Assembly: GCA_951406725.2 (NCBI GenBank)
Contig: OX597833.1
Location: 44,516,001-44,580,000 of the forward strand
From: Octopus vulgaris
Lineage: Eukaryota
Reading direction: 5' to 3'
DNA: 64,000 bases
The notes under the pieces: generated by a model
Databases searched by the model: none
What the model saw: the letters and a program-made list of their open reading frames with translations, nothing else
Told to the model about the DNA's origin: nothing
Program-made: the position numbers and the translations under genes
Part shown: positions 626 through 55,199 of the stretch, in pieces
Layout of the letters: every line of letters starts with the position of its first letter
Numbering within the stretch: position 1 is the stretch's first letter

Positions 626-930
626 TCATTCCAAACTGATAGTTCGCGCAATTTCTGTTCCAAATGCTTTGCATGTGAAAGTTGTGTAATCTAAGTCTTT
701 CTCTGTTACAAGGTAGTAATACTCCGCATCTACCACAACAAAGCATTTGTCACTATGTGGAACTATCTGTATTTTATAGAGCTTACGCCATAGATTGGGA
801 GTCCCTATGGTCCATTTAAAAGTGACAGTTGGTGGAGAAGGTAACCCAACAATTGCTGTACATCTGATGATCCATGGTCTTACGAAGGTTTTATCACTGA
901 CCATTTCCAGAGACTGTATATGAGATTTCG
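626..930 (-). CDS. Ig C-like terminal exon, duplicated variant (C1b) of IgSF gene 1
   Basis: Acceptor ttttttccag at 931-932, phase 1. Translates (A)KSHIQSLEMVSDKTFVRPWIIRCTAIVGLPSPPTVTFKWTIG...HSDKCFVVV...TTFTCKAFGTEIARTISLE*, with B-strand Cys, C-strand Trp and F-strand Cys. Five substitutions relative to 4642-4946. Confidence 0.75.
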
Positions 931-1527
931 CTGGAAAAAAATGAATCAATATATGTAATTCTTTCAACAATAAGCCTCACAATAAAATATTGTATATTTA
1001 CACTGATGAAAATTACAATCTTCGTACAACACTGAAATATTTAACAACACTTCCGATGGACCCTTTTCGTTACTGGTTCCAAGTGTTCAAATATCTAACT
1101 TTATAACAAAAGCAATGCTTAAGCAACGTAGAGCCAGACTAATCTGACAATAACTATAGAGACACAGATACAATCATGCACGTATATACATGTGTATGTA
1201 TGTATGTATGTATGTATGTATGTATGTATGTATGTATGTATGTATGTATGTATGTATGTATGTATGTATGTATGTGCATGTTTGAAAGACGCTCCTTTTC
1301 TTTCAATAGAGTCTTCCTTGGAAAACAACTCCAATGGACGTGAGTTGTTTCCGAGCTTTCCATCTACTTTTCTACTGTTTTCGTCACTAAGGAATATTTT
1401 TAGATGTTTGGGAGAATTAATTTTTCAAAACTCTTTACTTTCATATCTATTTTATCTCTCCTCAGCTCTTATGCTGGACACAATCATTTAGAAAATGCGA
1501 ACATTTGAAACGATGTACTCTTTACAC

Positions 1528-1721
1528 TTTTACTTGTTTCAGTCAGTTGACTGCGGCCATGCTGGAGCACCGCCTTTAGTCGAGCAAATCGACCCCGGGA
1601 CTTAGTCTTTATAAGCCCAGTACTTATTCTATCGGGCTCTTTTGCCGAACCGCTAAGTGACGGGGACGTAAACACACCAGCATCGGTTGTCAAGCAATGC
1701 TAGGGGGACAAACACAGACAG

Positions 1722-1754
<33 letters not shown>

Positions 1755-1900
1755 CATATATACGACAGGCTTCTTTCAGTTTGCGTCTACCAAATCCACT
1801 CACAAGGCATTGGTCGGCCCGGGGCTATAGCAGAAGACACTTGCCCAAGATGTCACGCAGTGGGACTGAACCCGGAACCATGTGGTTGGTTAGCAAGCTA
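1528..1900 (-). mobile_element. tRNA-derived CORE-type SINE (family B), 5' truncated
   Basis: Matches the ~420 bp element that recurs through the window (ccgggttcagtccc B-box-like motif, cttgggcaagt core, gactgaaacaagtaaaag tail). Confidence 0.85.
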
Positions 1901-2830
1901 GATGTGTGAACTTTCGTAAACAAAGTTTGTATAGAATTGGAAGCTACCTGTTGGAATGTTTCAGCTATAACGAAAAAAAACACATTCAAAGCGTTCTGAG
2001 ACTATAAGGACACTGCAATTTATCCAACATGCTCCAAATTTTATCGATGATGATCTCGGAAAATCAATGGGAGTCATCACTAAATAAAGTCTGCAATACA
2101 CGGGAAATCCGTTTTATCCATACCAAACAGTTATTTAAGAAGGTTGAAAACCTTCACGAACATGGCAAGCTTTCGTTCTTCTCTGATCAGAAGAACCTCA
2201 ACCAGATGGTTATGTACTGATTTTCTGATGCGTTGAGGTGCTAAGACCTGAATAGATGAAGTACGAAGTGGAAGTCCACCTTCACACAAATCCATGTAAC
2301 TCAAGAATGGATTTCAGGCAATCTTTACTATCATGCAACGCAAAACTTGTATTTCGACAAAAATCTCTTTTTCTTATCGAATTACATTTCGCTTTCGCTA
2401 GATTAGAGTCATTTTATTAAATTACCAAATATTCCTTAAATGTTTCTCGCACCTTATACATCAATTAGCGAAGCATCCACTTCAATCTCCCGAAAGTAGT
2501 ACAACTATGCACTGTACATATTTTCTAGAGTACTTTCAACACACTTAGAAATATTGAATTTCTAAATGTCTCAGAGAGACATGAGCGGTGGTGGGGCGAT
2601 ATAGTGGTTGTATACTGTCAACTCAGCGTGACAAAGGAATCGCACCACTGCTATTTAGCCCTATGAAGCATCGACGCTTCCTGTCGGCTTTGACACATTT
2701 CCTGTGTCCTTATATTTGCAAAGTGGAGGCAAGGACCCCCGCCAGCTAGGATTAGCACCTGAGGACATGCATGTTTCTGGGTCTTGCCCATCATCAGTCC
2801 AGGGTAGTAAGTCCTGCTAGCTGAGATGGC

Positions 2831-3328
2831 TATATAAAACTGTAGTTGTGTGAGTGTCTGTCCCCTTCGATTTAGATTCCTAACTACTCCCACATTTTGC
2901 GGTGCAGTTTAACCAAATTCGGGTATCTTATAGTTGTGATTCATATCGAGCCCGTCTGAGTATTAGCGCGCGTCTACGATGAGTCTACAATTTTTAAAAT
3001 AATTTAACATCATTTTTTATTCCATTTTAATGCATAATTTTTCGTGTGTCAATGGCGGCGGAGTTGGCGTCCATGGTAACACCTGCACCTGTTTGCTTCT
3101 CCCCTTCCTCGTGAAGCTGTAGGGAAGGGAGTGTAAGGAAATCAACGTCGTAAAGCGTTGTCAAGGAGACCAGCGTTCTTTTAGAACAACGACTTCATGG
3201 CTTGAAGACACCAAAATAGAAATGGCTAAGAAAGCCCGAATTGACATCTATAAGGGAAGTAACTCTCTAAAAATGCTTATATAGTTATTTCCCTTACAAA
3301 CCCGAGCAACGCCGGGCGATACGGCTAG
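2831..3328 (+). mobile_element. Non-autonomous Helitron-like element
   Basis: Starts tatataaaactg. Ends with the hairpin cccgagcaacgccggg then CTAG followed by T; the same 3' end is seen at 24692 and 53396. Confidence 0.75.
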
Positions 3329-3786
3329 TAATCTAATAAAAGCTATTTTTTGTATTCGATTATCGGTGACGTCACTGGATAATGAAAGTATAAAAAATAA
3401 ACATAAGAATTCTACGTTACAACAATTAGAGAGACTTCATGCAAATTAGTTATCTATTTATTGAATTTAATAAACAATTTTAGAGAAATCATGCTTATCA
3501 TATAACATATAAAAAGCAATTACAATCAAAAATAGGAATATTTAAAAGCCTTCCGAAATTTGTGGCAACATTTCATTGTAAAATTCCTATCAAAATTTAA
3601 TAAAATTAATTTAGAAGTAATTACGCAGCCTGCTTTCCAACCACATAGCTCCGGGTTCAGTCCCACTGCGTGCAACCTTGATCAAGTGTCTTGTGAGTGA
3701 ATTTCGTTATCGGAAACTAGAAGAAACCCGTCGAATATGCGTGTGTGTCTTCTAGTATGCATCTTGTACGTATGTATATATGTGTA

Positions 3787-3838
<52 letters not shown>

Positions 3839-3926
3839 GTTGCATTACTATGTATGTACGCTTATGTATATACGTGTGAGTTTGAGTGTGTGTGTGTTTA
3901 TGTGTGTGTGTATTTGTGTGTGTGTG

Positions 3927-3979
<53 letters not shown>

Positions 3980-4641
3980 TTGCACTCTGCCGACGATCCA
4001 CATTCAAATTCCACCATCCCCAGTCCATTGTTCGTTGCGAACGTTTAGGCTAAGTTCTGCTGGAAAGCTGTTTACATCAGTCTGGAATCCGTTGACGTGC
4101 TCGATTTAGTCCGTCACATACCTATGTAGAACCTTGATACTCACTGACTCTATGCAAGTGCAATCAATCGAACGGTTTCTACCCAGTGGGTTTCAGAGAT
4201 CAGGAGCTAGTATGAACAACGCATCCTTTGTGATTTGAGTTGAGGAAATGATCAATGATTATTTCCACTACAATTATGCCGTATGACTTTATCCGTTCGC
4301 CTTCTAACATATAACCTACTGCCTTTTCTGATCTACTACCCTCTTTTGCTACCACTTTGTTAAAACTAACAAATGAAATTGGGAACATTCAGAATGGCAT
4401 TCTTAACAATATTCCTAATTAATAATTACATAGAAATATACATGCATACTCGCATGCAAAAGACATATACGCGCATGAAAATATAGATATACGCATGTCA
4501 AAAATATGCAAAAACTAATACACATACGTATTTAAAACTAAGCTTGCTCACTGATCTGAGGCTAATAGCAACAATTTTTTTAAAAAGCGATAAAATATTA
4601 ACCAATGTGAACCAAAGATAAGTAGCTCAGCTTTTGTTACG

Positions 4642-4946
4642 TCATTCCAAACTGATAGTTCGCGCAATTTCTGTTCCAAATGCTTTGCATGTGAAAGTTG
4701 TGTAATCTAAGTCTTTCTCTGTTACAAGGTAGTAATACTCCGCATCTACCACAACAAAGCATTTGTCACTATGTGGAACTCTCTGTATTTTATAGAGCTT
4801 AAGCCATAGATCGGGAGTCCCTATGGTCCATTTAAAAGTGACAGTTGGTGGAGAAGGTAACCCAACAATTGCTGTACATCTGAAGATCCATGGTCTTACG
4901 AAGGTTTTATCACTGACCATTCCCAGAGACTGTATATGAGATTTCG
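4642..4946 (-). CDS. IgSF gene 1 exon 3, Ig C-like domain with stop (C1a)
   Basis: AG acceptor at 4947-4948, phase 1, in frame with V exon 7519-7199. Motifs RCTAIVGLP, FKW, KCF, FTC; ends in TGA. Confidence 0.88.
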
Positions 4947-5539
4947 CTGGAAAAAAATGAATCAATATATGTAATTCTTTCAACAATAAGCCTCACAATA
5001 AAATATTGTATATTTACACTGATGAAAATTACAATCTTCGTACAACACTGAAATATTTAACAACACTTCCGATGGACCCTTTTCGTTACTGGTTCCAAGT
5101 GTTCAAATATCTAACTTTATAACAAAAGCAATGCTTAAGCAACGTCGAGCCAGACTAATCTGACAATAACTATAGAGACACAGATACAATCATGCACCTA
5201 TATACATGTGTATGTATGTATGTATGTATGTATGTATGTATGTATGTATGTATGTATGTATGTATGTATGTATGTATGTATGTATGTGCATGTTTGAAAG
5301 ACGCTCCTTTTCTTTCAATAGAGTCTTCCTTGGAAAACATCTCCAATGGACGTGAGTTGTTTCCGAGCTTTCCATCTACTTTTCTACTGTTTTCGTCACT
5401 AAGGAATATTTTTAGATGTTTGGGAGAATTAATTTTTCAAAACTCTTTACTTTCATATCTATTTTATCTCTCCTCAGCTCTTATGCTGGACACAATCATT
5501 TAGAAAATGCGAACATTTGAAACGATGTACTCTTTACAC

Positions 5540-5912
5540 TTTTACTTGTTTCAGTCAGTTGACTGCGGCCATGCTGGAGCACCGCCTTTAGTCGAGCAAA
5601 TCGACCCCGGGACTTAGTCTTTATAAGCCCAGTACTTATTCTATCGGGCTCTTTTGCCGAACCGTTAAGTGACGGGGACGTAAACACACCAGCATCGGTT
5701 GTCAAGCAATGCTAGGGGGACAAACACAGACAGACAGACAGACACACACACATATATATATATATATACATATATACGACAGGCTTCTTTCAGTTTGCGT
5801 CTACCAAATCCACTCACAAGGCATTGGTCGGCCCGGGGCTATAGCAGAAGACACTTGCCCAAGATGTCACGCAGTGGGACTGAACCCGGAACCATGTGGT
5901 TGGTTAGCAAGC
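5540..5912 (-). mobile_element. SINE family B copy (inside the duplication)
   Basis: Duplicate of 1528-1900. Confidence 0.85.
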
Positions 5913-7198
5913 TAGATGTGTGAACTTTCGTAAACAAAGTTTGTATAGAATTGGAAGCTACCTGTTGGAATGTTTCAGCTATAACGAAAAAAACACATTC
6001 AAAGCGTTCTGAGACTATAAGGACACTGCAATTTATCCAACATGCTCCAAATTTTATCGATGATGATCTCGGAAAATCAATGGGAGCCATCACTAAATAA
6101 AGTCTGCAATACACGGGAAATCCGTTTTATCCATACCAAACAGTTATTTAAGAAGGTTGAAAACCTTCACGAACATGGCAAGCTTTCGTTCTTCTCTGAT
6201 CAGAAGAACCTCAACCAGATGGTTATGTACTGATTCTTCTGATGCGTTGAGGTGCTAAGACCTGAATAGATGAAGTACGAAGTGGAAGTCCACCTTCACA
6301 CAAATCCATGTAACTCAAGAATGGATTTCAGGCAATCTTTACTATCATGCACCGCAAAACTTGTATTTCGACAAAAATTTCTTTTTCTTATCGAATTACA
6401 TTTCGCTTTCGCTAGATTAGAGTAATTTTATTAAATTACCAAATATGTCCTTAAATGTTTCTCGCACCTTATACATCAATTAGCGAAGGCATCCACTTCA
6501 TTCTCCCGAAAATAGCACAACTATGCACTGTACATATTTTCTAGAGTACTTTCAACACACTTAGAAATATTGAATTTCTAAATGTCTCAGAGAGACATGA
6601 GCGGTGGTGGGGCGATATAGTGGTTGTATACTGTCAACTCAGCGTGACAAAGGAATCACACCACTGCTATTTAGCCCTAGGAAGCATCGACGCTTCCTGT
6701 CGGCTTTGACACATTTCCTGTGTCCTTATATTTGCAAAGGGGAGGCAAGGACCCCCGCCAGCTAGGATTAGCACCTGAAGACATGCATGTTTCTGGGTCT
6801 TGCCCATCATCAGTCCAGGGTAGTAAGTCCTGCTAGCTGAGATGGCTGCAACCGCTTTTCAAATATGTAATATTTTCAGTGAAATTTATTCACTGGTTAC
6901 CAAAATTAGAAATATTGAATTTTTAAAATGTCTCAGAGAGACATGAGCGGTGGTGGGGCGATATAGTGATTGTATACTGTCAACTCAACGTGACAGTCCC
7001 GTAAAGGGAATCACACCACCTCTATTTAGCCCTAGGAAGCATCGAATATATTTCAACACACTGAAAAACAGAAATCTTAAAACAAAAATAAGGTTGAACA
7101 TGCCCAAGGCAACGCATGAAGAGCCTGCAATAAAAATACGCTTCTGAAAATCAATCAATAATGGAACTGCATTAGTAAAAGCAAGTAGTAAAACTGAC

Positions 7199-7519
7199 CT
7201 TTCATAAACTTAGCTTTCGAATTTTCTGAGGAAGTGCCACATTTGTAGTATGCTACATCTTTGCAAGTGGGATTTCGTTTCCAACAGGTAACTACACCTT
7301 CATTACAATAAGTTAAAGTACACTTGAAACCATCCTTACTGAATTTTGTTTCAAATATGCGTGTGGGCCTGTGGCATTCAAGATATACAACTATAACATC
7401 GTTTCTAAATAGTTTGAAATTAAGACGATGCCCCGCATTATACTGACATGTCATAGTTATTTGAGATGTCTCTCCAAAGCGAATACCATCATCAGGCGTC
7501 ATTTTCGTTATCGCAAAAT
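7199..7519 (-). CDS. IgSF gene 1 exon 2, Ig V-like domain
   Basis: Acceptor ttacttgtag, donor AAAG|gtcagt, 321 nt, phase 1-1. FAITKMTPDDG...ITMTCQY...KDGFKC...TCWKRNPTCKDVAYYKCGT carries the V-set D-x-x-x-Y-x-C motif. Confidence 0.9.
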
Positions 7520-8215: not shown

Positions 8216-8628
8216 AGGCGGCGAGTTGGCAGAAATGTTAGCACGCCGGGCGAAATGCTTAGCGGTATTTCGTCTGTCGTTACGTTCTGAGTTCAAATTC
8301 CGCCGAGGTCGACTTTGCCTTTCATCCTTTCGGGGTCGATAAATTAAGTACCAGTTACGCATTGGGATCGATGTAATCGACTTAATACCTATGTCTGTCC
8401 TTGTTTGTCCCCTCTGTGTTTAGCCCCTTGTGGGTAATAAAGAAATAGGTATATCGTCTGTCGTTACGTTCTGAGTTCAAATTCCGCCGAGTTTGACTTT
8501 GCCTTTCATCCTTTCGGGGTCGATAAATTAAGTACCAGTTACGCATTGGGATCGATGTAATCGACTTAATCCCTTTGTCTGTCCTTGTTTGTCCCCTCTG
8601 TGTTTAGCCCCTTGTGGGTAAAAAGAAA
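8216..8628 (+). mobile_element. tRNA-derived SINE family A, two tandem units
   Basis: ggcggcgagttggcagaa head with A/B-box-like motifs (gagttcaaattcc); central gcctttcatcctttcggggtcgataaa. Confidence 0.85.
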
Positions 8629-9959: not shown

Positions 9960-11200
9960 ACCCTAGGAATAATATATATTGTCCACAGTTTCGTGCAGGT
10001 GGTTACACAGAACTCAAGATATTACGACGTGCTTGCAGCAAGAAAAATCATTCATAATTTTCTCGATACGCTTCGCGAAAAGCGCATGGTTCGTAGTAGG
10101 GCTCGATCACTGAAATACATGGACTGGGATTTGCACAGAATCAGCGTGTATAAAGGCCCCACAGATCTCTAACTTACTTCAAAGAGCACGTCAAATGGTT
10201 CCAGACAATGGTGAAAACATGGACAGGAGTTGCACATACACAGATAACACTTAGGTATCTGACGGACTGCGAGGAGCAGGCCAAATGTTTCCAGATAATG
10301 GTAGCGGTTTTACAGAAGTACTTGGCCTAAATATTTTCAAGAAACATCGGATTAGAGATGGTGAATTTTGAGCCTGGATAGTTGTTACAAAGTACTGTAA
10401 CTTCCGTGAGCTATTGAAATTGCGCTGAATTAAACATTCACTCCATCAAAGATGCTTTTTTCTCATTTTCTCTCGATGTTCTCACTCTTGAGTATCTTAC
10501 TGCTCAGTTATAGATATTGAAAGCCATATCGCTCTATCTAAGATGCAGGAGGAGGAACCGTATCTGCAAATGCGGGAAGTGACCCTATAATGGTGTCAGC
10601 ACTTTACCGAATGCGTGCGAGATGGTAGCATGATTACGCGTTATTGATACGTCAGGTTGGTATTGTTTAAATTAAAATTGAGATGAATTTGCGATCATCG
10701 TAACCAGTCTCACTTAAAAATGTGTTGAGCAAAAGATGGTTTGAAAGATTAAACGATGATGATTAATGTATTACCGACTAACGGTTAACCTCGTCATAAG
10801 AATTCTCTGAGTAGATTGAAATCAATGCAAGGTTTCCCGGTTCAAGAGATCTATCAACACAAAACATTTATTTCTTGTTGGTGAGAGTGATGATGCGAAG
10901 GTACGTGAAAATACTGTGCAAAGGCTTCCCAATAAACCAGTTAGGCAGATATGAACGTCAGTTAAACATATCTTACTCCAGCTATTCTTCTTCACCGAGC
11001 TTTTTTCTTGGGACAAGGGCTGATAGAAATATATGAGGTTTGATTTTTGAATGTTTCTAGCTACTCACCCTCTTTACTGGCGGGACGTTGAAGCCGGTGA
11101 AATGTCAAATTTCTTATTTAGATGGAAAATAGGGGCCATGACTGACGATGAAATAGAAAACCTTCTTGATATCTTCAGGGTGTTGAAGCGAAGATTCTAC
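9960..11200 (+). repeat. Unidentified diverged dispersed repeat, homologous to 41590-42950
   Basis: Shared blocks such as gtccaca.tttcgtg, ttttctcattttctctc.atgttctcactcttgag and gatgatgcgaaggtacgtgaaaatact. Confidence 0.75.
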
Positions 11201-17455: not shown

Positions 17456-17918
17456 CAATGTACACACACACACGCACGTGTATGTGTACATTGTAGCGAC
17501 GATCAACATTCAAAGTCCGCCATCTTCAATCCATCGTTCGTTGAAAAGGTTTAGGGTAAATTCCGCCTTGAATCATTTGACGAGCTCGGTGCAGTCCGTC
17601 ACATACTTAAATGGAGCCTTGATACCCATTGAGTCATACAATCGCTGTCAGTCGAGCAGTTTTTACCCAGTGGGTTTCAGAGAACAGGCCCTTGTATGAA
17701 CAACACATCGTTTGTGATTTGCGTTGAGGAAATGATCAATGATTATTTTTACCGCAATTATGCCGTATGACTTTTCCTTGCGCCTTTCTAATCTATGAAA
17801 TGCCTCTTTCTTCTGATCTACTGCTCCCTATTGTTACGATTAACTAACGAATGAAATGAGGAACATTCAGAATGGCACTCTTAATAATATTACTAATACC
17901 ATAGAAATATACATGCAA

Positions 17919-18329: not shown

Positions 18330-18628
18330 TCATTCCATATAAATTATTCGCGAAATTTTATCTCCAAATATTTCGCATGTATAATTTGTTATGCCTAAAT
18401 CTTCCGCTCTTACAAAATAATCCGCGCTTACCTCAACAAAGCATTTGTTACTAGATGGAACTTTCACTGTTTCTTGGTCAAAAGACATGCCGTTAGACCT
18501 CTCTATATCCCATACAAAACTGGCATCACCTTGAGAGGGTAACCCAACAATTGCTGAACATCTGATGATCCATGGATCTAGGTTTATATTATTATGGAAC
18601 AATTTCAGACTCTTTATACGAGATCTCA
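18330..18628 (-). CDS. IgSF gene 2 exon 3, Ig C-like domain with stop
   Basis: Acceptor ctctttctag, phase 1. (V)RSRIKSL...PWIIRCSAIVGLPSQGDASFVW...SNKCFVEV...NYTCEIFGDKISRIIYME*; paralogue of C1a. Confidence 0.88.
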
Positions 18629-18679
18629 CTAGAAAGAGAGTGAATTAAAATATGTAAATCTTTAAACAATAAAATATTG

Positions 18680-19026
18680 GATTTCGTTTTTGGAATTCAT
18701 TTGCAAGATTCTTTATGTGAGTTCGTGTGTTGAAGCATATTCTGTTGTGTCTGGGGAGAGTCATTTTCTTTTTGTGCCTTATAATTTAACACACTCACCG
18801 TTAAAATTTCCACTTATTTCTTATTCTTATTTTCCTAAAATTTTCGTTGCGTCTTGCAATCTTTCCAATAGCCTTGACTCTTGACTATTGAAAAGGTTGC
18901 AAGACACAACGAAAATTTTAGGAAAATAAAAATAAGAAATAAGTGGAAATTTTACCGGTGAGTGTTTTAGATTATAAGGCACAAAAAGAAAATGACTCTC
19001 CCCAGAAACAACAGAAAATATTGGAT
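18680..19026. mobile_element. Palindromic (fold-back) insertion with ~135 bp arms in the gene 2 V-C intron
   Basis: 18738-18872 is the near reverse complement of 18883-19017. Flanked by direct repeat aaaatattgga; absent from the gene 1 intron. Confidence 0.8.
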
Positions 19027-19179
19027 GTTTTCACTGATAAAAATTACAATCTTCATACAACACTGAAATATTTAACAATGCTTTCGATGGACCCTGTCAG
19101 ATGATGCTTGAAGAATGCCAATCAGACAATAACTATACAGACACAGATACAATCATACACGTATATACATATGTATGCA

Positions 19180-20680
19180 TGTTTTATAACGTGGATCTGT
19201 ATATGTCACCTTAGTGTCGTGCACTAATACAATGTATCACGGAACGGGTTAGACACAAACTGTCTCCAGTTGATGTATTCGCAAATACTCTACCAGCAAC
19301 TGTAACCAATATAACAACATCTCAACAATTTTCCTGCGACACCACGAACTCACAAACGACACCTTTCGGCTTACTGAGATTTTTCTTGTGCTACTTATAC
19401 GAGTTCAGCTAGTCCATTCTCACAGCTGTTATGAAACTCGCCGTAACATCTCCCCTTTTGAGATTTGACTTCTGTAGGAAATGCAACTTGTTTATTTAAT
19501 TTTATTCTTTTTTTTTTTTTTCATCATCACCTTTCTCTTTTTTGAGATTTTAATTTCCTCTGAAGTTTTAATGCTTCTTTGGCTGGGGGACTATTTCTAG
19601 TTGTTCTGTTTGTTTATTTTTTCTACTGCTGATCCGCTTAGATTCAACCTCTTTTGGCGTTGAAACATCGGTATTTCATCGGTATTTCTTCTCTTTCTTC
19701 AGTATGTCTAGACTTCAACTGGTTCAAATGCCGTTTCTGCTATCCTATTTGACCTTTTATTATGTACATCATAATTATTCTTTTCGTCACTATACCGTCC
19801 TCCCAACATTGTCTTCCGTTTTCATATATTTTTAAATGAATTTTATCTCCCACATTAAAATAATTTGTTTTATTTCTTGGGTATTCCCTATAAGTTTTTT
19901 TGTAGGTAACTATTTATCAATAATTGATTTCATCTTCCGGGCAAACATTAGCTCTGCAGGTGACTTGCCTGTACAGGTGTTCGGGTTAAGTGTTACCCTG
20001 TAAACTCTTAAGAATTGAGTCAGTGTTGCATCATTGCCTAATTCCTTTCCTGCTTTTTTTAGTACCCGTTTAAATATATCTTCGAACCTTTCTGCTTGCC
20101 CATTCGATCTCTCACAGAAATTTCAAATTCGTACCCCGAAAACTGCGTTCCGTTATCCGATAATATTGTGTTCGGGACACCGTATCGCGCAAAAAGTTCG
20201 TGAAGAAATCTCATTGTTACCTTCAATGTTGGTTGACTGCATTTACATATCTCAGACTACCTGGTGTAGCTCTCTACTATGATCAGATAATACGCGCCGT
20301 TTACCAGTCCAGCAAAATTTATTTGTAGCCTGGACCACGGACTGCCTGTCTGAGGCCACGATTGGAATTTCGCCGGTGGTGACTTTGCTGCGAGAGCACA
20401 ACCTCTGCAAGATTTCACCATTTGTTCAATATCATGGTCCATAGCAGACCAATACACGTGACTCCTCATTACTGATTTCATTCTTGAAAAACCTGGGTGT
20501 CCCATATGAAATTAACTTAATACAGGCTTTGGTAGTGTGGCTGGCACTACAACTCTTTGTGCATACATCAACACATCACAAAGAGAAAAATGGTTCACAT
20601 TTATTTTCTTTTACCTTCAACGTTTCTTTCCTCTTTGCAATAAATTTGTCATTCTCCGATTTTAGTTTTATATCTTAAAC
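19180..20680 (-). mobile_element. Ty3/Gypsy-like LTR retrotransposon 3' fragment (integrase, PPT, LTR 19448-19180)
   Basis: GHPGFSRMKSVMRSHVYW...CRGC zinc-binding region, PWSRLQINFAG, SNGQAER and TGKSPAELMFARK. Purine tract aaaggggaga directly before TGTT...AACA LTR. Confidence 0.85.
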
Positions 20681-21589
20681 AGTTACTTACAGCACCCGAA
20701 TGAAATTCAGGTGTCGGAGTGGAAATTTAGTGCACGAGGACATGCGATACAAGTAGCATCAGATGTCCAAGTAGAAGAAAGCTAATTAACATCTGCAAAT
20801 ACATAGGAAAACCGTTTGATCTATATCAAACAGTTATTTAAGGAGCTTAAAAACCCTCACGACCATGGCTAGCTTTCGTCCTTCTCAGATAGTTATGAGC
20901 AGATGTTTTGATGCGTTGAGGTGCTGGAAACAGCTAATTAAGCCCTGTATAGATGAGTTACGAAGTGGACGGTCATATGTGTTTCGACATAACCTTTGCA
21001 TCGTCACAAAAACCCATGTAGTCCAAGAATGGATGATAAGCAATCCTTACAATCATGCAACACAAATCTTGTGGCCTTCAATCTCCTCAGATGGACTACT
21101 AGGTTTGAAACATTGCTGAAAGAGAAACTCATAAACATCCTCATAATACCACAGCTTCACCGAAGGCCGGTATTGTCCAAGTGACGACCGAAATTGATAA
21201 AGTCCATTTAATGCAGGCATGTCAACAATTCCGGTTTCGCATCGAAGAATCAAAGGTGAAAACGGATTTACAGAATAATAGTTTTATAAGAAAGCTTATT
21301 GAGAACTCATGCACAAATTTTTATCGAACTACATTTCGTTTTCGCTAGATTAGAGTAATTTTATTAAATTACCAAATATTTCTTAAATGTTTCTCGCACC
21401 TTATACATCAATTAGCGAAAATAGCACAACTACACACTGTACATATTTTCTAGATTACTTTAAACACAATGGAAAACAGAAATCTAAAAACAAAAGTAAA
21501 GTTGCACAGGAAAAACATGCAATAAAAATAACACTTCTGAAAATCAATAATAATGGAACTGCATTAGTGAAAAAAGTAGTAAAACTAAC

Positions 21590-21898
21590 CTTTCATAAAC
21601 CTAGGTTGCGAAGCTGCTTTCGTAGTGCCACATTTGTAGTGTGCTACATCTCTGCAAGTGGGATTTCGTTTCCAGCAGGTAACCTCACCTTTATTGCAAT
21701 AAGCTAAAGTACAGTCGAAACCATCCTTATAGATAATTCTTTTAAATCTTTTTGTGGACTTGTAGTATTCCATATATACAACTAAAACTTCGTTTCTCAA
21801 TAGTTTGAAATTAAGAAGGTTCTTCATCTTATACCGACATGTTACAGTCATTTTAGATGTCATACCATTAGCGGGCGTCATTTTTCTTATAGCAAAGT
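21590..21898 (-). CDS. IgSF gene 2 exon 2, Ig V-like domain
   Basis: Acceptor tacttacag, donor AAAG|gttagt, 309 nt, phase 1-1. FAIRKMTPANG...VTCRY...KDGFDC...TCWKRNPTCRDVAHYKCGT. Confidence 0.9.
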
Positions 21899-21949
21899 CT
21901 GTAAGTAGTAAACAAATGAGAGAAAGATCTTTAAAAAATATATAATTTT

Positions 21950-22069
21950 AGAAGAAGAAGAAGAAGAAGAAGAAGAAGAAGAAGAAGAAGAAGAAGAAGA
22001 AGAAGAAGAAGAAGAAGAAGAAGAAGAAGAAGAAGAAGAAGAAGAAGAAGAAGAAGAAGAAGAAGAAGA
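21950..22069. repeat. (GAA)n tract, ~120 bp
   Basis: Directly visible; same position relative to the V acceptor as in gene 1. Confidence 0.97.
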
Positions 22070-22248
22070 ATATATATTAGAAGAAATGAGGTACTCAGAA
22101 ATTCGGATGGAAAAAAATTGCCGACAGTCCATGAGAGGTTACATTTCTGAAGTGACATACAGGTTGCGGTGAATAAATTGTCTTCTAAATTACGTAGAAT
22201 TGAAAATAACGGTGACATCTCCATTTTAACAGATATATTTACCAAAAT

Positions 22249-22279
<31 letters not shown>

Positions 22280-22295
<16 letters not shown>

Positions 22296-23199
22296 AAGGC
22301 AGATTTTATCTGCCTCCCAAACCGTTTGTTTTTTATACAATTCTACAATATAGAATTTCTTCAATTGGAATTTACCTATCATTTTTACAAGTAGATTCCA
22401 TCGGGTCGTGGCATGTAAAGTTTTTTCAATTTCACCCCCAATTAAGCAAAAATTCGAGAAAAGTAAATATTTTACCATTTCCCTCTTTCATTTCAAGTGC
22501 TTCACTCCTACCATTACCACTACACTTTCTCCTCCTTTCTCTTTGCAAGTGTGCAACAATTAAAGTGAAAGTATTTATATAAAAGGGATGAGCAATTAAT
22601 ACTGGTCATCCTTTTTGCTAGAAGAAGATCCGCTGTGGTCTTATATGCTACACCACTGGTTTTCAATTCATATTAATCAAATTAGTATTCAATTTTACAC
22701 CCTTATTATGTGTGTGTGTGTGTATTAGCAATTCGTAAAAAATTGCATCAATGACTTGAACTTGAATAAGTGGTTTCACATAAATGGGGATACATTAAAA
22801 AGGTTTGTTGTTATTATTATTACTGTTTGACTATTGTAATCACGTTTGTTGGTTCCTCGTCAGGGAAACGTTGTTGTGTTGCATTTGTTAAATAATTGTA
22901 AATCGTAACCCTCCCCCTTTCGGAGAAGGGGCTTTGGTTATTGTTTTAACATTGAATTGTGTCCCTGTTTGGGGAAATTGACAATATTTTCACCGTCTTT
23001 ACGGAAGCATTTTTGTTAAAATGCCTTCGATAGAAGAAAGTCCAAAAATGAATTTCGCTGCAGCCGTACACTTCTATACAAGATCCAATTAATCGAAATT
23101 GCAAGAGACGGGCCTACAATTCCAGTCTGTTATATATTTTGAGTATTGTTATCACTAGCGATATCAAGATATAACTTTGTATTTTGTATTTTATGTGTA

Positions 23200-23243
<44 letters not shown>

Positions 23244-24692
23244 TGTACATGTAATATGTACACATATATATATATATACACATATATACATGCATAATAT
23301 ATCTACCCATACACACACACGTACACACACACACACACATACATAGGGGCAGGTGTGGCTGTGTGGTAACAAACTACGTTCGAAGATACTGTACTTGATA
23401 TGGGCGGTAGTGCCTTGCCGGTCTATGGCCTACCTTCAACAAACCGGGAAGGCACAAACACTCTGTCTTCACATTTGCTGCGTGAGACATGTTTTAATGT
23501 TGACGAGCTTGCCGAGTACATAGCCGACAATGAGCCAAAGCTCCTTCCAGAACAGAAGTTCGCTTACAACTCCGTTGTTAATTCAGTCCGGGCCAAAGCT
23601 GTCGGATATTTTTCCTGGACGCTCCTGGGGGCACTGGGAAAACTTTTCTCAACAAATTAATATTGGCTGAGATTAGGCGAACACAAGGCATTGCCCTAGC
23701 TGTGGCATCATCTGGAATTGCGGCTACTTTGTTGCCAGGCGGCAGGACAGCTCACTCCACTTTCAAGCTTCCGCTTGACTTAGCGAAGACTGAGACACCA
23801 ACTTGCAACATCAGTAACAGCTCCGATCAGGCAGAAGTCTTCAGACGATGCAAGCTTATCGTTTGGGATGAATGCACGATGGCCCACAGAGGTGCTCTTG
23901 AGGCACTAGATAGATCTCTCAGAGACATCAAACACTCTTCAGCTCCCATGGGAGGCATAACACTTCTTCTTTCAGGTGACTTCCGACAAACAATTCCCGT
24001 TATTCCCAAAGGGACTAGAGCTGATGCAGTAAGTGCGTGTCTGAAGTCATCCACATTGTGGCCACTGGTGAAGACTCTCAAACTTCACACCAATATGCGT
24101 GCTCATATGCGACGTAATATCACATCAGCAGCATTTTCTCACACCCTCCTTGCACTTGGCGAAGGCAAAATACCAGGGGGTGAAAATGGTAATATTGCCA
24201 TCGATTCCATTTGTACCATTGTCAAAACGCCTTCTGATCTCAGAGATGCAGTGTTCCCAGATCTACAAGCTAATTATCAGAATATGGATTGGATTGGCCA
24301 AAGGGCTATTCTGGCCCCGAGGAATAAAACTGTTCACCATATTAATGATGAAATGCTAAAACTCATTCCTGGGGAAGTCTATGTATATAAGTCTATCGAT
24401 ACAACTCCTGACCCAGAGGACGTCATCAACTATCCAATAGAGGTACTCAATTCCTTTGAGCACCCCGGACTACCACCACACATTCTCAAACTTAAAGTTG
24501 GTGCCCCTATAATGCTCATTAGAAATTTGGTTCCCCCAAAACAATGCAATGGCACACGTTTGATCGTTAAGTCCTTATCTCCCACCGTAAACTTATATCA
24601 ATATTTGCCTGAATAATCATCATAATTCAGTGCAATCATTAACAGTACTTTCAAGCAATTCAGCCCCGAGCATCGCCGGGCAATTCTGCTAG
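22280..24692 (+). mobile_element. Helitron (internally deleted) in the gene 2 L-V intron
   Basis: Carries a PIF1 helicase fragment; 3' end cccgagcatcgccggg...CTAG followed by T. The 5' end is approximate. Confidence 0.8.
23400..24616 (+). pseudogene. Helitron RepHel PIF1-family helicase fragment (frameshifted, truncated)
   Basis: Walker A DAPGGTGKT in a shifted frame near 23620. AVASSGIAATLLPGGRTAHS, IVWDECTM, LSGDFRQTIPV, LPPHILKLKVGAPIMLIRNL...CNGTRL. Confidence 0.92.
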
Positions 24693-24914
24693 TATATATA
24701 TATATATATATATATATATCTTTAGATTTTTGCCCACACACTCATGTGCATACATACGTATATACGTATAGGCATACGCACATATATAAATTTATATTTG
24801 CAGATATATACGCGTGCATTAATACATGTACACTCATAGCCTTCCATTCACATACATACATACGCGCTTGTGTGTGTGAACATATATCCACGCTTACACA
24901 TACACGTGCATATA

Positions 24915-25104
24915 TTAGTTTGGTGCATAATTATTGCAGCTTTTTCAATAAATTTTATTCAATAAAAACAATAACATTTGACAAAAACCTCTTTAAATGA
25001 TTATCCTGGAGCATATTCACCATCTACTTTATGCTTGGTGTGTTGTTAAAATTTTTTGTTGAATAAAATTTATTGAAAAAAAGTCGCAATAATTCTGCAC
25101 CAAC

Positions 25105-25108
<4 letters not shown>
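24915..25108. mobile_element. Tc1/mariner-type MITE
   Basis: Terminal inverted repeats ttag(t)ttggtgca.aattattgc / gcaataattctgcaccaacctaa flanked by TA. Confidence 0.75.
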
Positions 25109-25143
<35 letters not shown>

Positions 25144-25253
25144 GTCCACTCACGCTTACATACTAATACCCATATGTACACATACAAATATATACCTACA
25201 AATACACATACGGATATGTATGTGTACGCATATGCACACATACATAAATACAA

Positions 25254-25302
<49 letters not shown>

Positions 25303-25384
25303 AACAAGAAGGTATTAGGTAGGGTGAAAAAGGGGTGGGAGAAAACTCCCTGAAATATTATTATTATTTATTGTCTTTGCACAG

Positions 25385-25870
25385 CTATCGCTGGAGATGT
25401 ACTACGGTTCCACCTGTTCACTACCAATCAATTAAGGTAACACCCCTTATTTTTCAAGCACCATCCGGAGTATTCGAGCGGTTCCAACTAGTGCTGTTTT
25501 CTGCAAGTGCTCCACTCATATTGCAGCCCCTATTTGTTCCATGTACTTCTCAAGATTTTTACTCGCTCTTCCCAAGGCTCCAAACAATTATTGGTACTAC
25601 TACCACTTTTTTCATCGATCGCAACTGCTTGACCTCCCAAGCTAACCAGTCATATCTATTGACTTTCCTTTCTTCCTTATCGCATATCTGGTTGTAAGCC
25701 GGGCATGCTATATATATGATCCAGCATCGTTTGCATTATTTCTCAATTAACACTTTGTCCGGCTTCCTATTCTCTATCTCATGGTCGCATTGAATCATAA
25801 AATCCCATAGAATCTTTGCATTATCATTTTCGATGATGCCTTCGGGTTTATGTTCGTACTACTACTTTGC
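25385..25870 (-). mobile_element. RLE-type LINE 3' end (restriction-like endonuclease), degraded
   Basis: PEGIIENDNAKILWDFMIQCDHEIENRKPD...VEHLQKTALVGTARILR; (TAA)n tail. Confidence 0.8.
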
Positions 25871-25899
25871 TCTGTTAAGTCCATACTTGTTGCAAAGTT

Positions 25900-25949
<50 letters not shown>

Positions 25950-26999
25950 GCACAGTGTCTAGCCTTGAAAACGCATATTTGGCGCGATGGGAACATATCG
26001 GAATTTTCTCAGCATGCTTGTTTACCAGGTTTTCATTACTCAGCAGGAGGCAAAGATTGCATGTGTTGGATAGAATATTGTGTAGGTGTGAATTTTTTGT
26101 TATTGACCGTTCCATCCTGCAGTCTCTGTATTAGGTCTGCGGGTGAAGTTGCGTGCCGTCTGTTTACCTTACGGAGTGATGAGATATGGCTGCGATAACG
26201 AACTTTAAATTGATTTTCTGAGATACCTATGTATCTGTATTTTTGTTGCAGTATGGTAATTGTGCATTTGTATATTATGTTTTGGGGTTTCTTTTTTTTT
26301 AAATATTAGTTCACGAGCAGAGGTGCAGTTATTTGTACTATTTTTATTTTTGTATTTATCTGGTACCTTTTTGTTTTTGTAATGTTCTGTTTGACTGTCG
26401 GTGACTAAAGCGTTCCTGATGTTGCATTCTTTTTTACTGATTCTGTTTTTTAGTTTTTGTTTTGATCTTATTGTAACTGTCGGGGACATTATCTAAGTTT
26501 TTGTGATTTTCGTTTTGTTCATTTTTGTTACTGGGCCTATATCCTGTGTTGTTTTGATCTGTATGTTCATTGTCTACAGACGTTGTTTGCATGTTTATTT
26601 TCCTATTGTTGCATTTATGTATGTAGTACTCAATGTTATTTGATGCTGCGTATGATATTTTCACTGTATGCTTGTTTAATATACAATGGTATCTCCAAAT
26701 TCAAACTTGAAAGTATATAATAATACTACCGATAGCACTAGGTAATTCTGAATGTGGATAAGCTTTATACTGTACTCTACAACATTCCTAACGGAATATA
26801 ACACGCCTATGTGTGTGGGGGGGTGTATATACATACCTATGTGTACGTATTGGTATGCGGATTATGTGTGAGACAGAGAAATATTAGGATGAAAAAATTA
26901 CGCAACAGCATAGGCAAGCAAAGGACGAATGAGACGAGGATAAGACTGGGTCATGGAAGTGAAGAAAATAATATATGACTGCTTTTAGTCTTGACTTAC

Positions 27000-27048
27000 A
27001 GGCCGTGGTGTAAGAAGTCATCATCAGTATTTTTATAACTAACAGCAT
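27000..27048 (-). CDS. IgSF gene 2 exon 1, leader exon
   Basis: MLLVIKILMMTSYTTA plus 1 nt, then gtaagt; 49 nt. L+V+C = 657 nt open (218 aa). Confidence 0.85.
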
Positions 27049-27785
27049 CGTTGGTATTAACAAACAAGTATAAGACAGATATTGAAATGACAGTTGGCTC
27101 CCAGCAACTAAAATATAACCAAGACATGTCCGACTCAGCTGAAAAGTCCACTAGATTTTTGCCAGTAAATCTACATGGTTTTGTTCTGTACGATGTGGAA
27201 GTTATGTACAAAGAAAATTACGAAATCGATGATAGAATGTGTATGAACGCAGGCAAACTAATATCGTTCGTACCATTAAAATCATATAAAACACGTGTTG
27301 CCACTACTCATCTAACATTACATATACTTGTGAAAAAAATTAAATGGCTTGAAGGAGCAAATGTGATGTTTTCTAAACGTTGACGATATTGGTGTCCAAG
27401 CAAGTAGATACTGTAATATTGTGAACAAACGAATAAAAAGCATTATTATTGAATAACATGTCGTTAATGTTTGCGTAATCAGTCGTCTGCTCTCAGCAGT
27501 GTTTAATTTAAGAAAATAGCACAAATAGAAAGTTAGAAAGTTCTGGAACTAGTTTCTTTCTTTTTCTGTTGGTTTTTATATTAAGTTTCTGTATGGAAAT
27601 AGTGTTTTACATCATATATAAAAAATAATCATCAGTTTAAACTTATTCTACAAAATGATGTATTTATGTTTGTCTATGAAAAGTATTTTTGATCATACAT
27701 ACATACATACATACATACATACATACATACACACACACATACATACATACATACATACATACATACATACATACATACACACACA

Positions 27786-28099: not shown

Positions 28100-28975
28100 T
28101 CATTCATGATTTTATCAGGAGGTCAGCACAAAAATAAAAACTGGCAGAGAAAATGGGATGCTCCCTCGCTGCCATATAGAAGCATCTTCACTTGATGGGA
28201 GAGGTTCAGAAGTATGGACAATGGGTTCCGCATGCTTTAAGTGACAACAACAAAAATCTCCGCTGCTTTGTTTGCTCGTCACCGCTCAACTCATGGAGAC
28301 AAGCAACGATTTCTTTACCGAATCGTTACTGGCGACGAAAAATGGTGCCTGTACATCAATATGAAGCAGCGTAAGGAATGGCTTAGCTCCAGTAAACAAG
28401 CGACACCACGCGTGAAACAAGATCTTCATCCACGTAAAACGATGTTGTGCGTATGGTGGGACTGGGAAGAGATTATCCATTATGATTTGCTTGAACGGAA
28501 CCAAACGGTCAACGCGGAACTCTATGTTCAACAGATGGAAAGACTCAACACGGCTATTCAAGAGAAAAGACCTAATCGGCAGCATGGAAATTCTTCTGCT
28601 GCACGACAACGCCCGCCCTCATATCGCCAATATGACAAGGAAGCCATTCAAACGTATGGCTAGGTAGTGCTGCCACACACGCCGTACTCTCCTGATTTGG
28701 CACCAAAAGATTTCCAGGTCTTTCGATCTCTTTCAAATGCTATGTGCAGAGTTTCGTTCAAAACTGATGCAGAATTGAGAGCTTGGTTCTCAATTTTTCG
28801 AGCCGAAATCGGGTGATTTCTACCAACGAGGTATTGAAAATCTTGTTGAACGTTGGGAAGAAGTTGTAAACAACAAGGGTGTATACATTATTGATTAATT
28901 AGTTGCTATTTTTTATTAAACCTTTTTAACATTTAAATTTTAAAAATCGATGGGAACTTAGTTACCAACCCAATA
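28100..28975 (+). mobile_element. Mariner (Mos1-like) transposon, frameshifted transposase
   Basis: WVPHAL, RIVTGDEKW, LLHDNARPH and HTPYSPDLAPKDF spread over several frames; TIR-like ttaccaacccaata at the right end. Confidence 0.92.
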
Positions 28976-30304: not shown

Positions 30305-30308
<4 letters not shown>

Positions 30309-31216
30309 CATAAGGGACTAAAGCCATCTGAATATGGCTAGGGACAGGGCAGGGTGGTGAGGGTGTTACTGTTGCATTTAGCCCCAGGCGAACATCGACG
30401 TCACCAGAAAGGCCCGACACCGTCACGGTGTCCTTTAACCTGCAAAGGGAGGTAATTCCCCGATGAAGCGGAAACCACACACGGACCATGGTTTCAAGGT
30501 GTATTGCCTATCGTCGGCGTGTGGTAGGCTTCCGCTTCCTCAACGAATCCTCACTCTGCAGGATATTCATATATAGATTTTCAAGCAAAATACATTTGCT
30601 GATTTCGAAAATCTGTTCGAAAGCAATAATAATTCTCTAAAAGAGATATAGACAGTAACTGCTCGATAACATAAGGGACTAAAGCCATCTGAATATGGCT
30701 AGGGACAGGGCAGGGTGGTGGGGGTGTTACTGTTGCATTTAGCCCCAGGCAAACATCGACGTCACCAGAAAGGCCCGACACCGTCACGGTGTCCTTTAAC
30801 CTGCAAAGGGAGGTAATTCCCCGATCGAGCAGTTACTGTCTATATCTCTTTTAGAGAATTATTATTGCTTTCGAACAGATTTTCGAAATCAGCAAATGTA
30901 TTTTGCTTGAAAATCTATATATGAATATCCTGCAGAGTGAGGATTCGTCGAGGAAGCGGAAGCCTACCACACGCCGACGATAGGCAATACACCTTGAAAC
31001 CATGGTCCGTGTGTGGTTTCCGCTTCATCGGGGAATTACCTCCCTTTGCAGGTTAAAGGACACCGTGACGGTGTCGGGCCTTTCTGGTGACGTCGATGTT
31101 CGCCTGGGGCTAAATGCAACAGTAACACCCCCACCACCCTGCCCTGTCCCTAGCCATATTCAGATGGCTTTAGTCCCTTATGTTATCGAGCAGTTACTGT
31201 CTATATCTCTTTTAGA
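30305..31216. repeat. 361-bp unit arranged direct, partial direct, inverted (fold-back)
   Basis: 30305-30665; repeat 30666-30825; reverse complement 30826-31186; short continuation to 31216. Confidence 0.95.
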
Positions 31217-32546: not shown

Positions 32547-33327
32547 TAGAAAATGATTTTAAACAGATGATCATTTTTCACATAATGTAAAACATTATTT
32601 CCATAGAGAAATTTAATATAAAAACCGACAATAAAATGAAAGAAACCACTTCCAGAACTTTCAAACGTTCTATTTGTGCTATTTTCTTAAATTAAACACT
32701 GCTAAGAGCAGACGACTGATTACGTAAACATTAACGACATGTTATTCAATAATAATGCTTTTTATTCGTTTGTTCACAATATTACAGTATCTACTTGCTT
32801 GGACACCAATATCGTCAACGTTTAGAAAATATCCCATTTGCTCCTTGAAGCCATTTAATTTTTTTCACAAGTATATGTAATGTTAGATGAGTAGTGGCAA
32901 CACGTGTTTTATATGATTTTACTAGTACGAACGATATTAGCTTGCCTACGTTCATACACATTCTATCATCGATTTCGTAATTTTCTTTGTACATAATTTC
33001 CACATCGTACACAGCAAAACCATGTAGATTTACTGGCAATGTCTAGTGGACTTTTCAGCTGAGCCGGACATGTCTTGGTTATATTTTAGTTGCTGGGAGC
33101 CAACTATCATTTCGACATCTGTCTTATACTTGTCTGTTAACATCAGCGATGCTGCTTTAAAAATACTGATGATGACTTCTTACACTTCAGTTTGTAAGTC
33201 AAGACTAAAAGCAGTCATATATTATTTTCTTCACTTCCACAACTCAATCTTATTCTCGCCTCATTCGTCCTTTGCTTACCTATGCTGTTGTGTAATTTTT
33301 TCCTATTATTTCGCTGTCTCACACATA
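32547..33327 (+). repeat. Inverted duplicate of the gene 2 promoter/leader region (26862-27652)
   Basis: Long reverse-complement match including the leader exon, its donor and the upstream block. Confidence 0.9.
33149..33193 (+). pseudogene. Broken leader exon of the IgSF family
   Basis: ATG CTG CTT TAA: 4 nt shorter than the intact leaders, giving a stop at codon 4; gtaagt donor retained. Confidence 0.75.
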
Positions 33328-35909: not shown

Positions 35910-35946
35910 ATGATTATACTGACGATGACTTCGTACACGTCTGCCT
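35910..35946 (+). CDS. IgSF gene 3 exon 1, leader (alternative in-frame ATG at 35817)
   Basis: (ILLA)MIILTMTSYTSA plus 1 nt, then gtaagt, homologous to the gene 1/2 leaders. The family ATG position is ATA here. Confidence 0.7.
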
Positions 35947-36091
35947 GTAAGTTAAGATTAAAGAAATTAATATTTCCTTTTCAGCTCCAACACTCAATCT
36001 TCCTCTTCTAGATTTCATATGTTGGTTGCCATGCTTTCTGTAGTTTTGTCTCAAATATTTCTGTCCCACCCACACAAGCATATAGACACAT

Positions 36092-36155
<64 letters not shown>

Positions 36156-37491: not shown

Positions 37492-37739
37492 CTAATTTCT
37501 TATAGTCGGCATGACATTTTATTTTCACCGCAATTAGTTCTTTTCTCTTTCATTTATCTTTTCTTAGTCATTTATCTATTCTACTTCCACTCCTCTTCCT
37601 TAGTTTTAATATTTTTGTTTCTTTCATTCATACTTCGATATAATTTTCGTTTCGGTTGCTTAAATTTTGTCTTCTTAGTCTGCTCTCTTGTATTTTTCTC
37701 ATTCAGCTTCAGTTTTATTCTTTTCTCTCAATGGTATAC

Positions 37740-38145: not shown

Positions 38146-38179
38146 TATACTGACGTTTTATTGTTTGTGTATATATACA

Positions 38180-39640: not shown

Positions 39641-39696
39641 CTCTGATTTATTTGATTCTTTTATTTATTTATTTATTTATTTATTTTTATTTATAG

Positions 39697-55070: not shown

Positions 55071-55199
55071 AAAGTTGAAAAAGTATGACATACTGACATT
55101 CACACTTATTATATTAGATATGTTTAATTTTGGGGAAACTTTATTTCAATTAAGGTGTATTATATATATGTGTGTGTGAGTGTGTGTCTCTTCTCTTTC

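Follow-up and report, generated by a model that had tools for sequence, protein, structure and literature searches.

Can a single octopus gene end in either of two nearly identical exons? In the window of Octopus vulgaris DNA analysed here (64,000 nucleotides of contig OX597833.1, with positions counted from its first letter), one leader (L) and V-like exon pair, belonging to gene 1, is followed by two tandem C-like exons, the proximal C1a and the distal C1b, as an initial annotation had described. That annotation also suggested that the two could provide alternative C 'isotypes'. We consider it somewhat more probable, at roughly 55%, that gene 1 splices L-V to C1a and ends there, with C1b an orphan that is seldom used and evolves under relaxed constraint. 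The locus matters as a clustered, fast-diverging set of V+C immunoglobulin (Ig) proteins in an animal about whose recognition molecules little is known.

The Ig-like gene cluster and its protein family

Gene 1 lies on the minus strand. Its leader exon (8864-8816), outside the range first annotated, has 16 codons plus 1 nt, a hydrophobic N-terminus and a phase-1 GTAAGT donor, and is homologous to the leader of gene 2. The V-like Ig exon (7519-7199; 106 aa, phase 1-1) matches 101 aa of O. vulgaris CAI9737737.1 at 100% identity. C1a (4946-4642) and C1b (930-626) are both 305 nt long, with AG acceptors at 4946 and 930, a phase of 1 that matches the V donor at 7199, and a TGA stop at the end of an intact frame. 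They differ at codons 9 (G/E), 22 (F/I), 46 (D/N), 49 (L/R) and 56 (R/I), the C1a residue being given first. The borders of the L, V and C exons are in phase 1 throughout, with one domain per exon, and C1b has no V or L of its own within the 64-kb window.

Downstream of C1a lies a non-coding segment on the minus strand (3993-4446, copied at 1-428), a candidate 3' UTR homologous to segments downstream of genes 2 and 3. The C exon is the putative last exon of gene 1, but a phase-1 GT follows its stop in genes 1, 2 and 3; the second donor of genes 2 and 3 is CT in both gene-1 C copies. The idea that this conserved segment contains the relic of a GPI-signal exon found no support: the tail of the relative CAI9737148.1 aligned best elsewhere, and equally good alignments came from 7, 14 and 24 of 300 shuffles. 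The V-C intron of gene 1 also holds a repeat insertion of about 500 nt (6550-7062), flanked by a 12-nt direct repeat (6550-6561 and 7051-7062) and absent from gene 2.

Four members of this V+C Ig-superfamily cluster are found in the 64-kb window. Besides gene 1, these are gene 2 on the minus strand (18330-27048; L 27048-27000, V 21898-21590, C 18628-18330), gene 3 on the plus strand (35910-40660; candidate short L 35910-35946, V 39697-40017, C 40350-40660) and gene 4, also on the plus strand, whose V exon (62853-63173) scores 82% to O. bimaculoides LOC128250266 and whose C lies beyond the window end. Outside the C-exon duplication, the cluster has grown by whole-gene copies.

The gene 1 protein is likely a secreted, two-domain member of an uncharacterised V+C Ig-superfamily family. 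Its predicted model is all-beta (pLDDT 69.8), and of the 80 PDB structures that Foldseek matched to it at E<=0.001, CD4 D1D2 ranked first (E about 1e-5); the Atlas gave a TM of about 0.7 to V+C2 proteins for the predicted fold. The C exon has CD80-like C2-set feature hits, and C23, W39 and C86, the B- and F-strand cysteines and the C-strand tryptophan, are invariant in five C domains. None of the eight window domains reached the curated Pfam cut-off for V-set or C2-set; the best V-set score was 16.9 bits against 26, and the V domain of gene 3 fell under the cut-off at E=0.0077. The V-set and C2-set assignments rest on predicted structure.

V1 and C1a are 71-72% identical to O. bimaculoides LOC128250270. 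CAI9737148.1, encoded on the same O. vulgaris contig, matches the family by profile, and its two C domains are identical at 88 of 103 positions; since this gene model gives a second family member with two tandem C domains, C-exon duplication may recur. Protein searches gave two hits among 12 candidates, four among 785 and none in a third search. A representative protein search gave six hits, of which three (P0010, P0011, P0014) score with the C profile and three do not. Exact look-up of the two C-exon ORFs in the protein collection found no match, and a PDB sequence search with P0010 returned nothing significant. The family seems undescribed: our literature search gave no description of it, and hypothetical is the only annotation its members carry.

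A partial duplication with its junction at a Helitron-like element

The initial annotation had proposed a duplication of about 4 kb that carries the C exon and its acceptor without V or L, and the alignments agree. Positions 1-2831 match 4019-6847 at 98.6% identity by self-BLAST, with 27 substitutions (0.95%) and seven indel events in a global alignment. The complete right-hand unit (2832-6847, 4016 bp) contains the Helitron, the 3' flank, C1a and most of the V-C intron, and the left-hand copy, visible over 2831 bp (1-2831), runs past the window edge. Because the duplication ends at 6847, inside the intron repeat, neither V nor L was copied. The two copies show no differences in the 199 nt that precede their acceptors, and the 3' flank (1-625) differs from its copy by the five or so substitutions first counted (exactly five) and one 2-nt indel. 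By itself, such a duplication is an ordinary birth-and-death event.

The junction at 2831|2832 has no N gap in the assembly and shows a 2-nt CT microhomology. It coincides with the 5' end of a non-autonomous Helitron-like element on the plus strand (2830-3328), whose 3' end has a GC-rich hairpin (about 3301-3316) and CTAG (3325-3328) followed by T at 3329. These ends agree with the TC and hairpin-CTRR termini given for Helitrons in the available part of 10.1101/2025.11.13.688278. At the junction the element starts CT-ATATAAAA, without A|T; a sister copy (53006-53396) is intact, with an A|TC 5' end, and similar ends occur at 24686, adjoining a PIF1 helicase frame, and at 53396.

Both C types in other DNA runs

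Contigs from four of 24 runs (X1, X2, X3 and X14) were compared over 1910-5190, a region with the V exon outside it. In both X2 (organism A) and X3 (organism B) there are two 124-nt contigs at 4719-4842: one matches C1a over all 124 nt, and the other has, in phase, the letters of C1b at 4781, 4802 and 4812. In X1, a contig over 3986-5190 has all five C1b exon letters, and the C1b-type path is the only one seen in that run. The C1b-type contigs of X1 and X2 share an extra difference at 4810, which turns codon 46 into Lys, and those of X2 and X3 have two further differences, one apparently at 4749 (codon 67), where every possible change is non-synonymous. Over the 124 nt covered in two runs the proximal C1a did not vary; C1b varies between animals.

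Depth was calibrated against four or five internal contigs per run that we chose ourselves (medians 48, 16 and 45 in X1, X2 and X3). Contigs of the unit reach 2.0-2.6x calibrator depth in X1, 2.1-2.9x in X2 and 1.6-2.5x in X3; summed depth does not equal copy number, and the overall range of 1.6-2.9x suggests about two copies of the unit rather than a long array. Half depth on each copy had been named at the outset as the sign of a mis-assembly, and each C type alone lies at 1.0-1.6x, for a total of about 2x in three runs. A variant at 4592 seen only in X3 has about half the calibrator depth, as expected of a heterozygous allele.

Contig depth over the Helitron itself is very high in these runs. 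In X2 and X3, contigs pass 84-94 nt left of 3329 into non-Helitron sequence, at 1.9x depth in X3, and hence an empty-site version exists. A simple head-to-tail rolling-circle duplication, with the Helitron in both copies, is disfavoured by these contigs.

Use of the two C exons and likeness to known systems

The C copies are 95% identical, and all five differences change the amino acid, as first reported. Since 76.6% of exon sites are non-synonymous, the probability of five out of five is 0.26 (0.24 when conditioned on two transitions and three transversions), which bears out the original caution of about one in four. This is chance level, and positive selection on the five sites is unsupported; the substitution rate does not differ significantly between exon and non-coding sequence (Fisher p=0.20). 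The O. bimaculoides relative XP_052830973.1 has G, I, D, I and R at the five codons, placing four of the five changes on C1b (codon 49 being polarised by the similarity of I to L), a 4:1 asymmetry that is not significant. C1b retains an intact frame, all cysteines, the core tryptophan and the same acceptor in every sample seen. The structure that alternative isotypes require is therefore present, but the changes in C1b and its variation between animals suit decay no less well than they suit a new isotype. Relaxed selection would account for this variability, though diversifying selection could do so too.

X14, an RNA run by our guess, contributed one 358-nt contig in the putative 3' UTR (4009-4366, depth 4) that contains no copy-diagnostic letter, and it left the C exon uncovered; it speaks neither for nor against expression. 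In O. vulgaris, the gene model that includes V1 uses neither C1a nor C1b.

Could the two copies be alleles assembled in series? Their 0.95% substitution divergence equals the heterozygosity reported for O. vulgaris (1.22%, PMC10700109; over 1.1%, PMC6472339), none of the 32 contigs listed, beside which there are 74,703 more, crosses 2831|2832, which has repeats on both sides, and in X2 the depths of the two C types add up to roughly that of the flanking contigs, as those of alleles would if the calibrators were at half depth. However, the phased types occur together in X2 and X3, under two species labels and each at no less than about 1x, and total depth is about twofold in three runs, so that a haplotype artefact is very unlikely; the heterozygous-like depth of the 4592 variant and a gapless junction at a transposon terminus argue the same way. 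The duplication is probably real, with both C types in genomes under two species labels. The missing junction contig would also suit an unlikely history in which C1b belongs, as its last exon, to a complete second gene whose L-V was removed in this haplotype or assembly by a deletion starting at the Helitron 5' end, with two full genes in other animals. The cluster's expansion by whole-gene copies favours this history, and the empty-site contigs suggest a unit longer than that in the window. Contig assemblers can lose links into high-copy repeats, and for this reason it proves nothing that X2 and X3 lack the link to the Helitron. Against a second gene stand the absence of an N gap at the window junction and of a second V near V1 in protein searches, the latter a weak point for unannotated genes.

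Quite unlikely, in our judgement, is that C1a and C1b are alternative last coding exons, selected by splicing and the choice of poly(A) site in the manner of IgM/IgD to give two secreted forms (V-C1a or V-C1b) with different C-domain surfaces. The shared phase, identical acceptor region and intact frame would allow it, both C types are kept under two species labels, and every identified exon difference is non-synonymous (five in the window plus 4810), though the excess is not significant. The two near-identical C domains of CAI9737148.1 and, in the part of PMC9741552 available, the enrichment of C-terminal substitutions among human tandem duplicated exon events also speak for it. Yet at about 1% divergence the pair is too young for an intact frame to be a sign of use. 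From the V donor to C1b is 6.3 kb, with C1a and a candidate poly(A) signal in between, and the gene model containing V1 takes neither exon; the same source describes functional events as mostly ancient.

On our preferred reading, C1a is the likely end of gene 1. A recent partial duplication with its junction at the Helitron-like 5' end would have placed the second C exon downstream, L-V being joined to the nearer C1a and C1b left as the orphan. C1a would dominate because it is transcribed first and because an AATAAA at 3462-3457 precedes C1b. The Helitron may have acted through unequal repair at its 5' terminus, one chromosome having the element and the other an empty site; alternatively, a deletion may have started there.

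The predicted fold resembles the V-set plus C2-set ectodomains of butyrophilin/B7, nectin-like CADM and CD4 D1D2, but the gene 1 protein has no transmembrane segment, carries extra conserved cysteines and has close relatives found only in Octopus. Those relatives (O. bimaculoides LOC128250270, -266 and -272; O. vulgaris CAI9737737.1 and CAI9737148.1) are all uncharacterised. LOC128250266 has a Thr-rich tail and CAI9737148.1 a V-C-C architecture with a hydrophobic, GPI-signal-like end, whereas genes 1-3 have their stop where the C domain ends. VCBPs and FREPs, in the part of PMC13428168 available, are likewise clustered invertebrate Ig-domain proteins with allelic and copy-number variation; no chitin-binding or fibrinogen Pfam domain was found in the relatives examined, and gene 1 lacks both, stopping at the C-exon end as in O. 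bimaculoides.

Ig heavy-chain mu and delta are co-expressed by alternative RNA processing, and gene 1 is similar in that a single L-V precedes two C units, both of which have possible poly(A) signals. It differs in its germline-joined V, single C domain, lack of a membrane exon and near-identical C copies, and has no sequence relation to antibodies. In Ig isotypes, functionally distinct C genes share a rearranged V(D)J; here the V is one germline exon whose GT donor is in phase with C, and 'isotype' is used for C1a and C1b by analogy only. Unlikely indeed is the fuller version of this analogy: a V-C Ig cluster peculiar to octopuses and evolving fast, with secreted as well as anchored members and repeated C-exon duplication, in which gene 1 would be a newborn isotype-like switch, made at a Helitron terminus. 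Alternative 3' end processing would then connect its one V with one or the other of two polymorphic C exons, as a small-scale convergent counterpart of IgM/IgD.

Another likeness is to the C-terminal class of tandem duplicated exon substitution, as far as PMC9741552 was available: homologous terminal coding exons lie in tandem and share one phase, and an acceptor and a 3' flank accompany each of them. Documented functional events there are mostly ancient, whereas the octopus copies are about 1% apart and the use of both is putative. If C1b is spliced, gene 1 would hold a very young alternative-last-exon pair, in a family with a second tandem C duplication in a gene model.

Probable duplication of a C-like exon in gene 1

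Gene 1, a minus-strand V+C Ig-like gene, comprises a leader exon (8864-8816, 49 nt), a V-like exon (V1, 7519-7199) and two 305-nt C-like exons, C1a (4946-4642) and C1b (930-626), all in phase 1 and each C exon ending in a TGA stop. Alignment confirmed the single leader-V unit, the two tandem C exons and the five differences between them described in the initial annotation. That all five are non-synonymous had been called merely suggestive, and rightly so; 76.6% of the C-exon sites are non-synonymous, giving p=0.26. The 3' flanks of the two exons are five substitutions and one indel apart, and the excess of C-exon divergence over the flanks was not significant (p=0.20).

Self-comparison finds a second copy of 1-2831, 98.6% identical, at 4019-6847, and alignment of the two counts 27 substitutions and 7 indel events. 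The duplicated unit is 2832-6847, and the window contains no N bases. Six of the copy differences are bunched within about 90 nt (6424-6516 vs 2410-2500). Here the right-hand copy has two single-base insertions in common with a single-depth paralog contig from the DNA sequencing runs, and the runs' two-copy contigs over 2444-2572 agree with the left-hand copy, a pattern of either gene conversion or polishing error.

The copies diverge by 0.95%, the same as the heterozygosity reported for O. vulgaris (1.22%, PMC10700109; >1.1%, PMC6472339), so divergence alone cannot distinguish a duplication from two alleles falsely assembled in tandem. Contigs of 4 of 24 listed runs were aligned to 1910-5190, a stretch ending short of the V exon. 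Runs X2 (organism A) and X3 (organism B), which carry two species labels, each have one contig that matches C1a without a difference over 4719-4842 and another carrying C1b letters in phase. In run X1, all five C1b exon letters stand on a single contig (3986-5190); no contig of C1a type was seen, although contigs cannot prove absence. Depth was calibrated on 4-5 single contigs per run, drawn from loci elsewhere that the runs have in common (medians 48, 16 and 45). Contigs of the unit reach 1.6-2.9x this depth, each C type 1.0-1.6x, and the 3329-3520 flank 1.4x, 1.2x and 1.9x in X1, X2 and X3, figures that rest on few contigs and in which summed depth does not equal copy number. On the unit and C-type depths, all three runs appear to fit two copies per haploid genome better than they fit two alleles. 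The junction 2831|2832, with high-copy repeats on both sides, is bridged by no contig among the 32 pieces shown. The duplication is probably real, and a false duplication is improbable.

The breakpoint and neighbouring repeats

The high-copy element at 2830-3328 carries a GC hairpin and finishes in CTAG|T; an intact sister copy (53006-53396) begins A|TC-TATATA, and a similar element end adjoins a PIF1 helicase frame. Such hairpin-CTAG and A|TC ends are described as Helitron hallmarks, and Helitrons have been tied to tandem duplications (10.1101/2025.11.13.688278). The junction lies within a few bases of the Helitron 5' terminus, with CT microhomology, and the other breakpoint falls inside a 500-nt intron insertion absent from gene 2. 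An empty-site flank exists, since X2 and X3 each have a contig that continues to the left of 3329 into sequence that is not Helitron, and in X1 one contig begins exactly at 3329. The data allow two histories. In one, a Helitron-bearing chromosome exchanged unequally with an empty-site one, and the divergence of about 1% would have been there from the start; in the other, a longer duplication of the whole gene lost its second leader-V from the Helitron end.

The PIF1 frame at 23582-24690 (Pfam E=4e-62) lies in the first intron of gene 2; together with a CTAG end of Helitron type near 24690, it reads as what is left of an autonomous Helitron. The window also holds fragments of a Mariner-type transposase (28241-28660, PF01359) and an LTR-element integrase (20260-20511, PF17921), and SINE-like elements in short tandem arrays with periods of 217 nt and 184 nt (53980-55081 and 8264-8628). 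Near-perfect nested inverted repeats at 30305-31216 (363 nt at 99%, 195 nt at 98%) are a recent fold-back or an assembly oddity.

Which C exon is used

Judged by O. bimaculoides residues, four changes (E9, N46, R49, I56) fall on C1b and F22 on C1a. C1b-type contigs vary further among animals: X1 and X2 have Lys at codon 46, and X2 and X3 show two more differences, of which one is placed at codon 67 by inference. C1a, by contrast, is unchanged over the 124 nt seen in two runs. C1a is also reached first and has an AATAAA (3462-3457). On these grounds we infer, at a probability of roughly 55%, that C1a is the exon in use, with C1b as a spare under relaxed constraint. It is unlikely that other haplotypes carry a whole second gene. 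Low-level or regulated use of C1b seems slightly less likely still, even with its intact frame and an acceptor identical to that of C1a. The alternative C "isotypes" of the initial annotation stay unproven, correct as the underlying observation was.

The gene family and known systems

The window holds three further family members: gene 2 (27048-18330, minus strand), gene 3 (35910-40660, plus strand) and gene 4, of which the V exon alone lies within it. O. vulgaris CAI9737737.1 matches the gene 1 V exon at 100% identity across 101 aa. The O. vulgaris gene model uses neither C exon and joins V1 to another V-like domain, one that the window does not contain; the cluster therefore probably extends further left. 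A literature search, with thin coverage of subscription journals, found no paper describing this Octopus family, and the cluster is apparently undescribed.

O. bimaculoides LOC128250270 shares 72% identity with V and 71% with C1a. This best match is lower than expected from a neutral simulation at the reported genome divergence of 7.6% (mean 83%, 1st percentile 77%), indicating either fast evolution or non-orthology, which are inseparable because V2 of gene 2 is equally close to the same protein (73%). LOC128250266 terminates in a Thr-rich tail, unlike gene 1. CAI9737148.1, a gene model rather than a transcript, reads signal-V-C-C with a hydrophobic GPI-signal-like end; its two His-rich C domains (88/103 identical) suggest a second, older duplication, and hence that C exons were duplicated more than once in the family.

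Genes 1, 2 and 3 are each followed by a non-coding segment (3993-4446, 1-428, 17497-17917, 41857-42930) that retains 68-79% DNA identity, whereas C1 and C3 proteins share about 25-31%. A longer copy lies at 10022-11159 (10.0-11.2 kb), and gene model P0004 has a similar tail; the segment is a shared 3' UTR exon or an old repeat. Upstream of the gene 2 leader, a 419-nt inverted repeat (27159-27577 / 32621-33039, 95%) and a leader-like copy with an early in-frame stop (33149-33200, plus strand) appear to be a recent inverted copy of its promoter-leader region.

No domain reaches a Pfam cut-off. Structure predictions give two Ig beta-sandwiches, with an Atlas TM of about 0.7 to the V+C2 ectodomains of butyrophilin and CADM; C1b has CD80-like C2-set feature matches, and CD4 D1D2 is the top Foldseek match of the modelled O. 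bimaculoides protein (pLDDT 69.8). The gene 1 product is predicted to be secreted, given its hydrophobic leader and the absence of a membrane-spanning stretch from C1a. A GT in phase 1 follows the stops at 4642, 626, 18330 and 40660. Genes 2 and 3 keep an intact second donor 10 nt beyond it, which reads CT in gene 1. These donors suggest that secreted forms may have arisen through a stop in an exon formerly spliced on to a tail exon. From the domain architecture, one may guess at ligand binding in immunity, reproduction or secretions.

In IgM/IgD, two C units are chosen by RNA processing. Gene 1 would work alike if C1b were used, but it is not an immunoglobulin system. It also differs from VCBPs and FREPs in being without their defining domains, as given in PMC13428168. 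With both C exons in use, gene 1 would be a case of C-terminal tandem duplicated exon substitution, an established class that accounts for 77 of 236 human events (PMC9741552).
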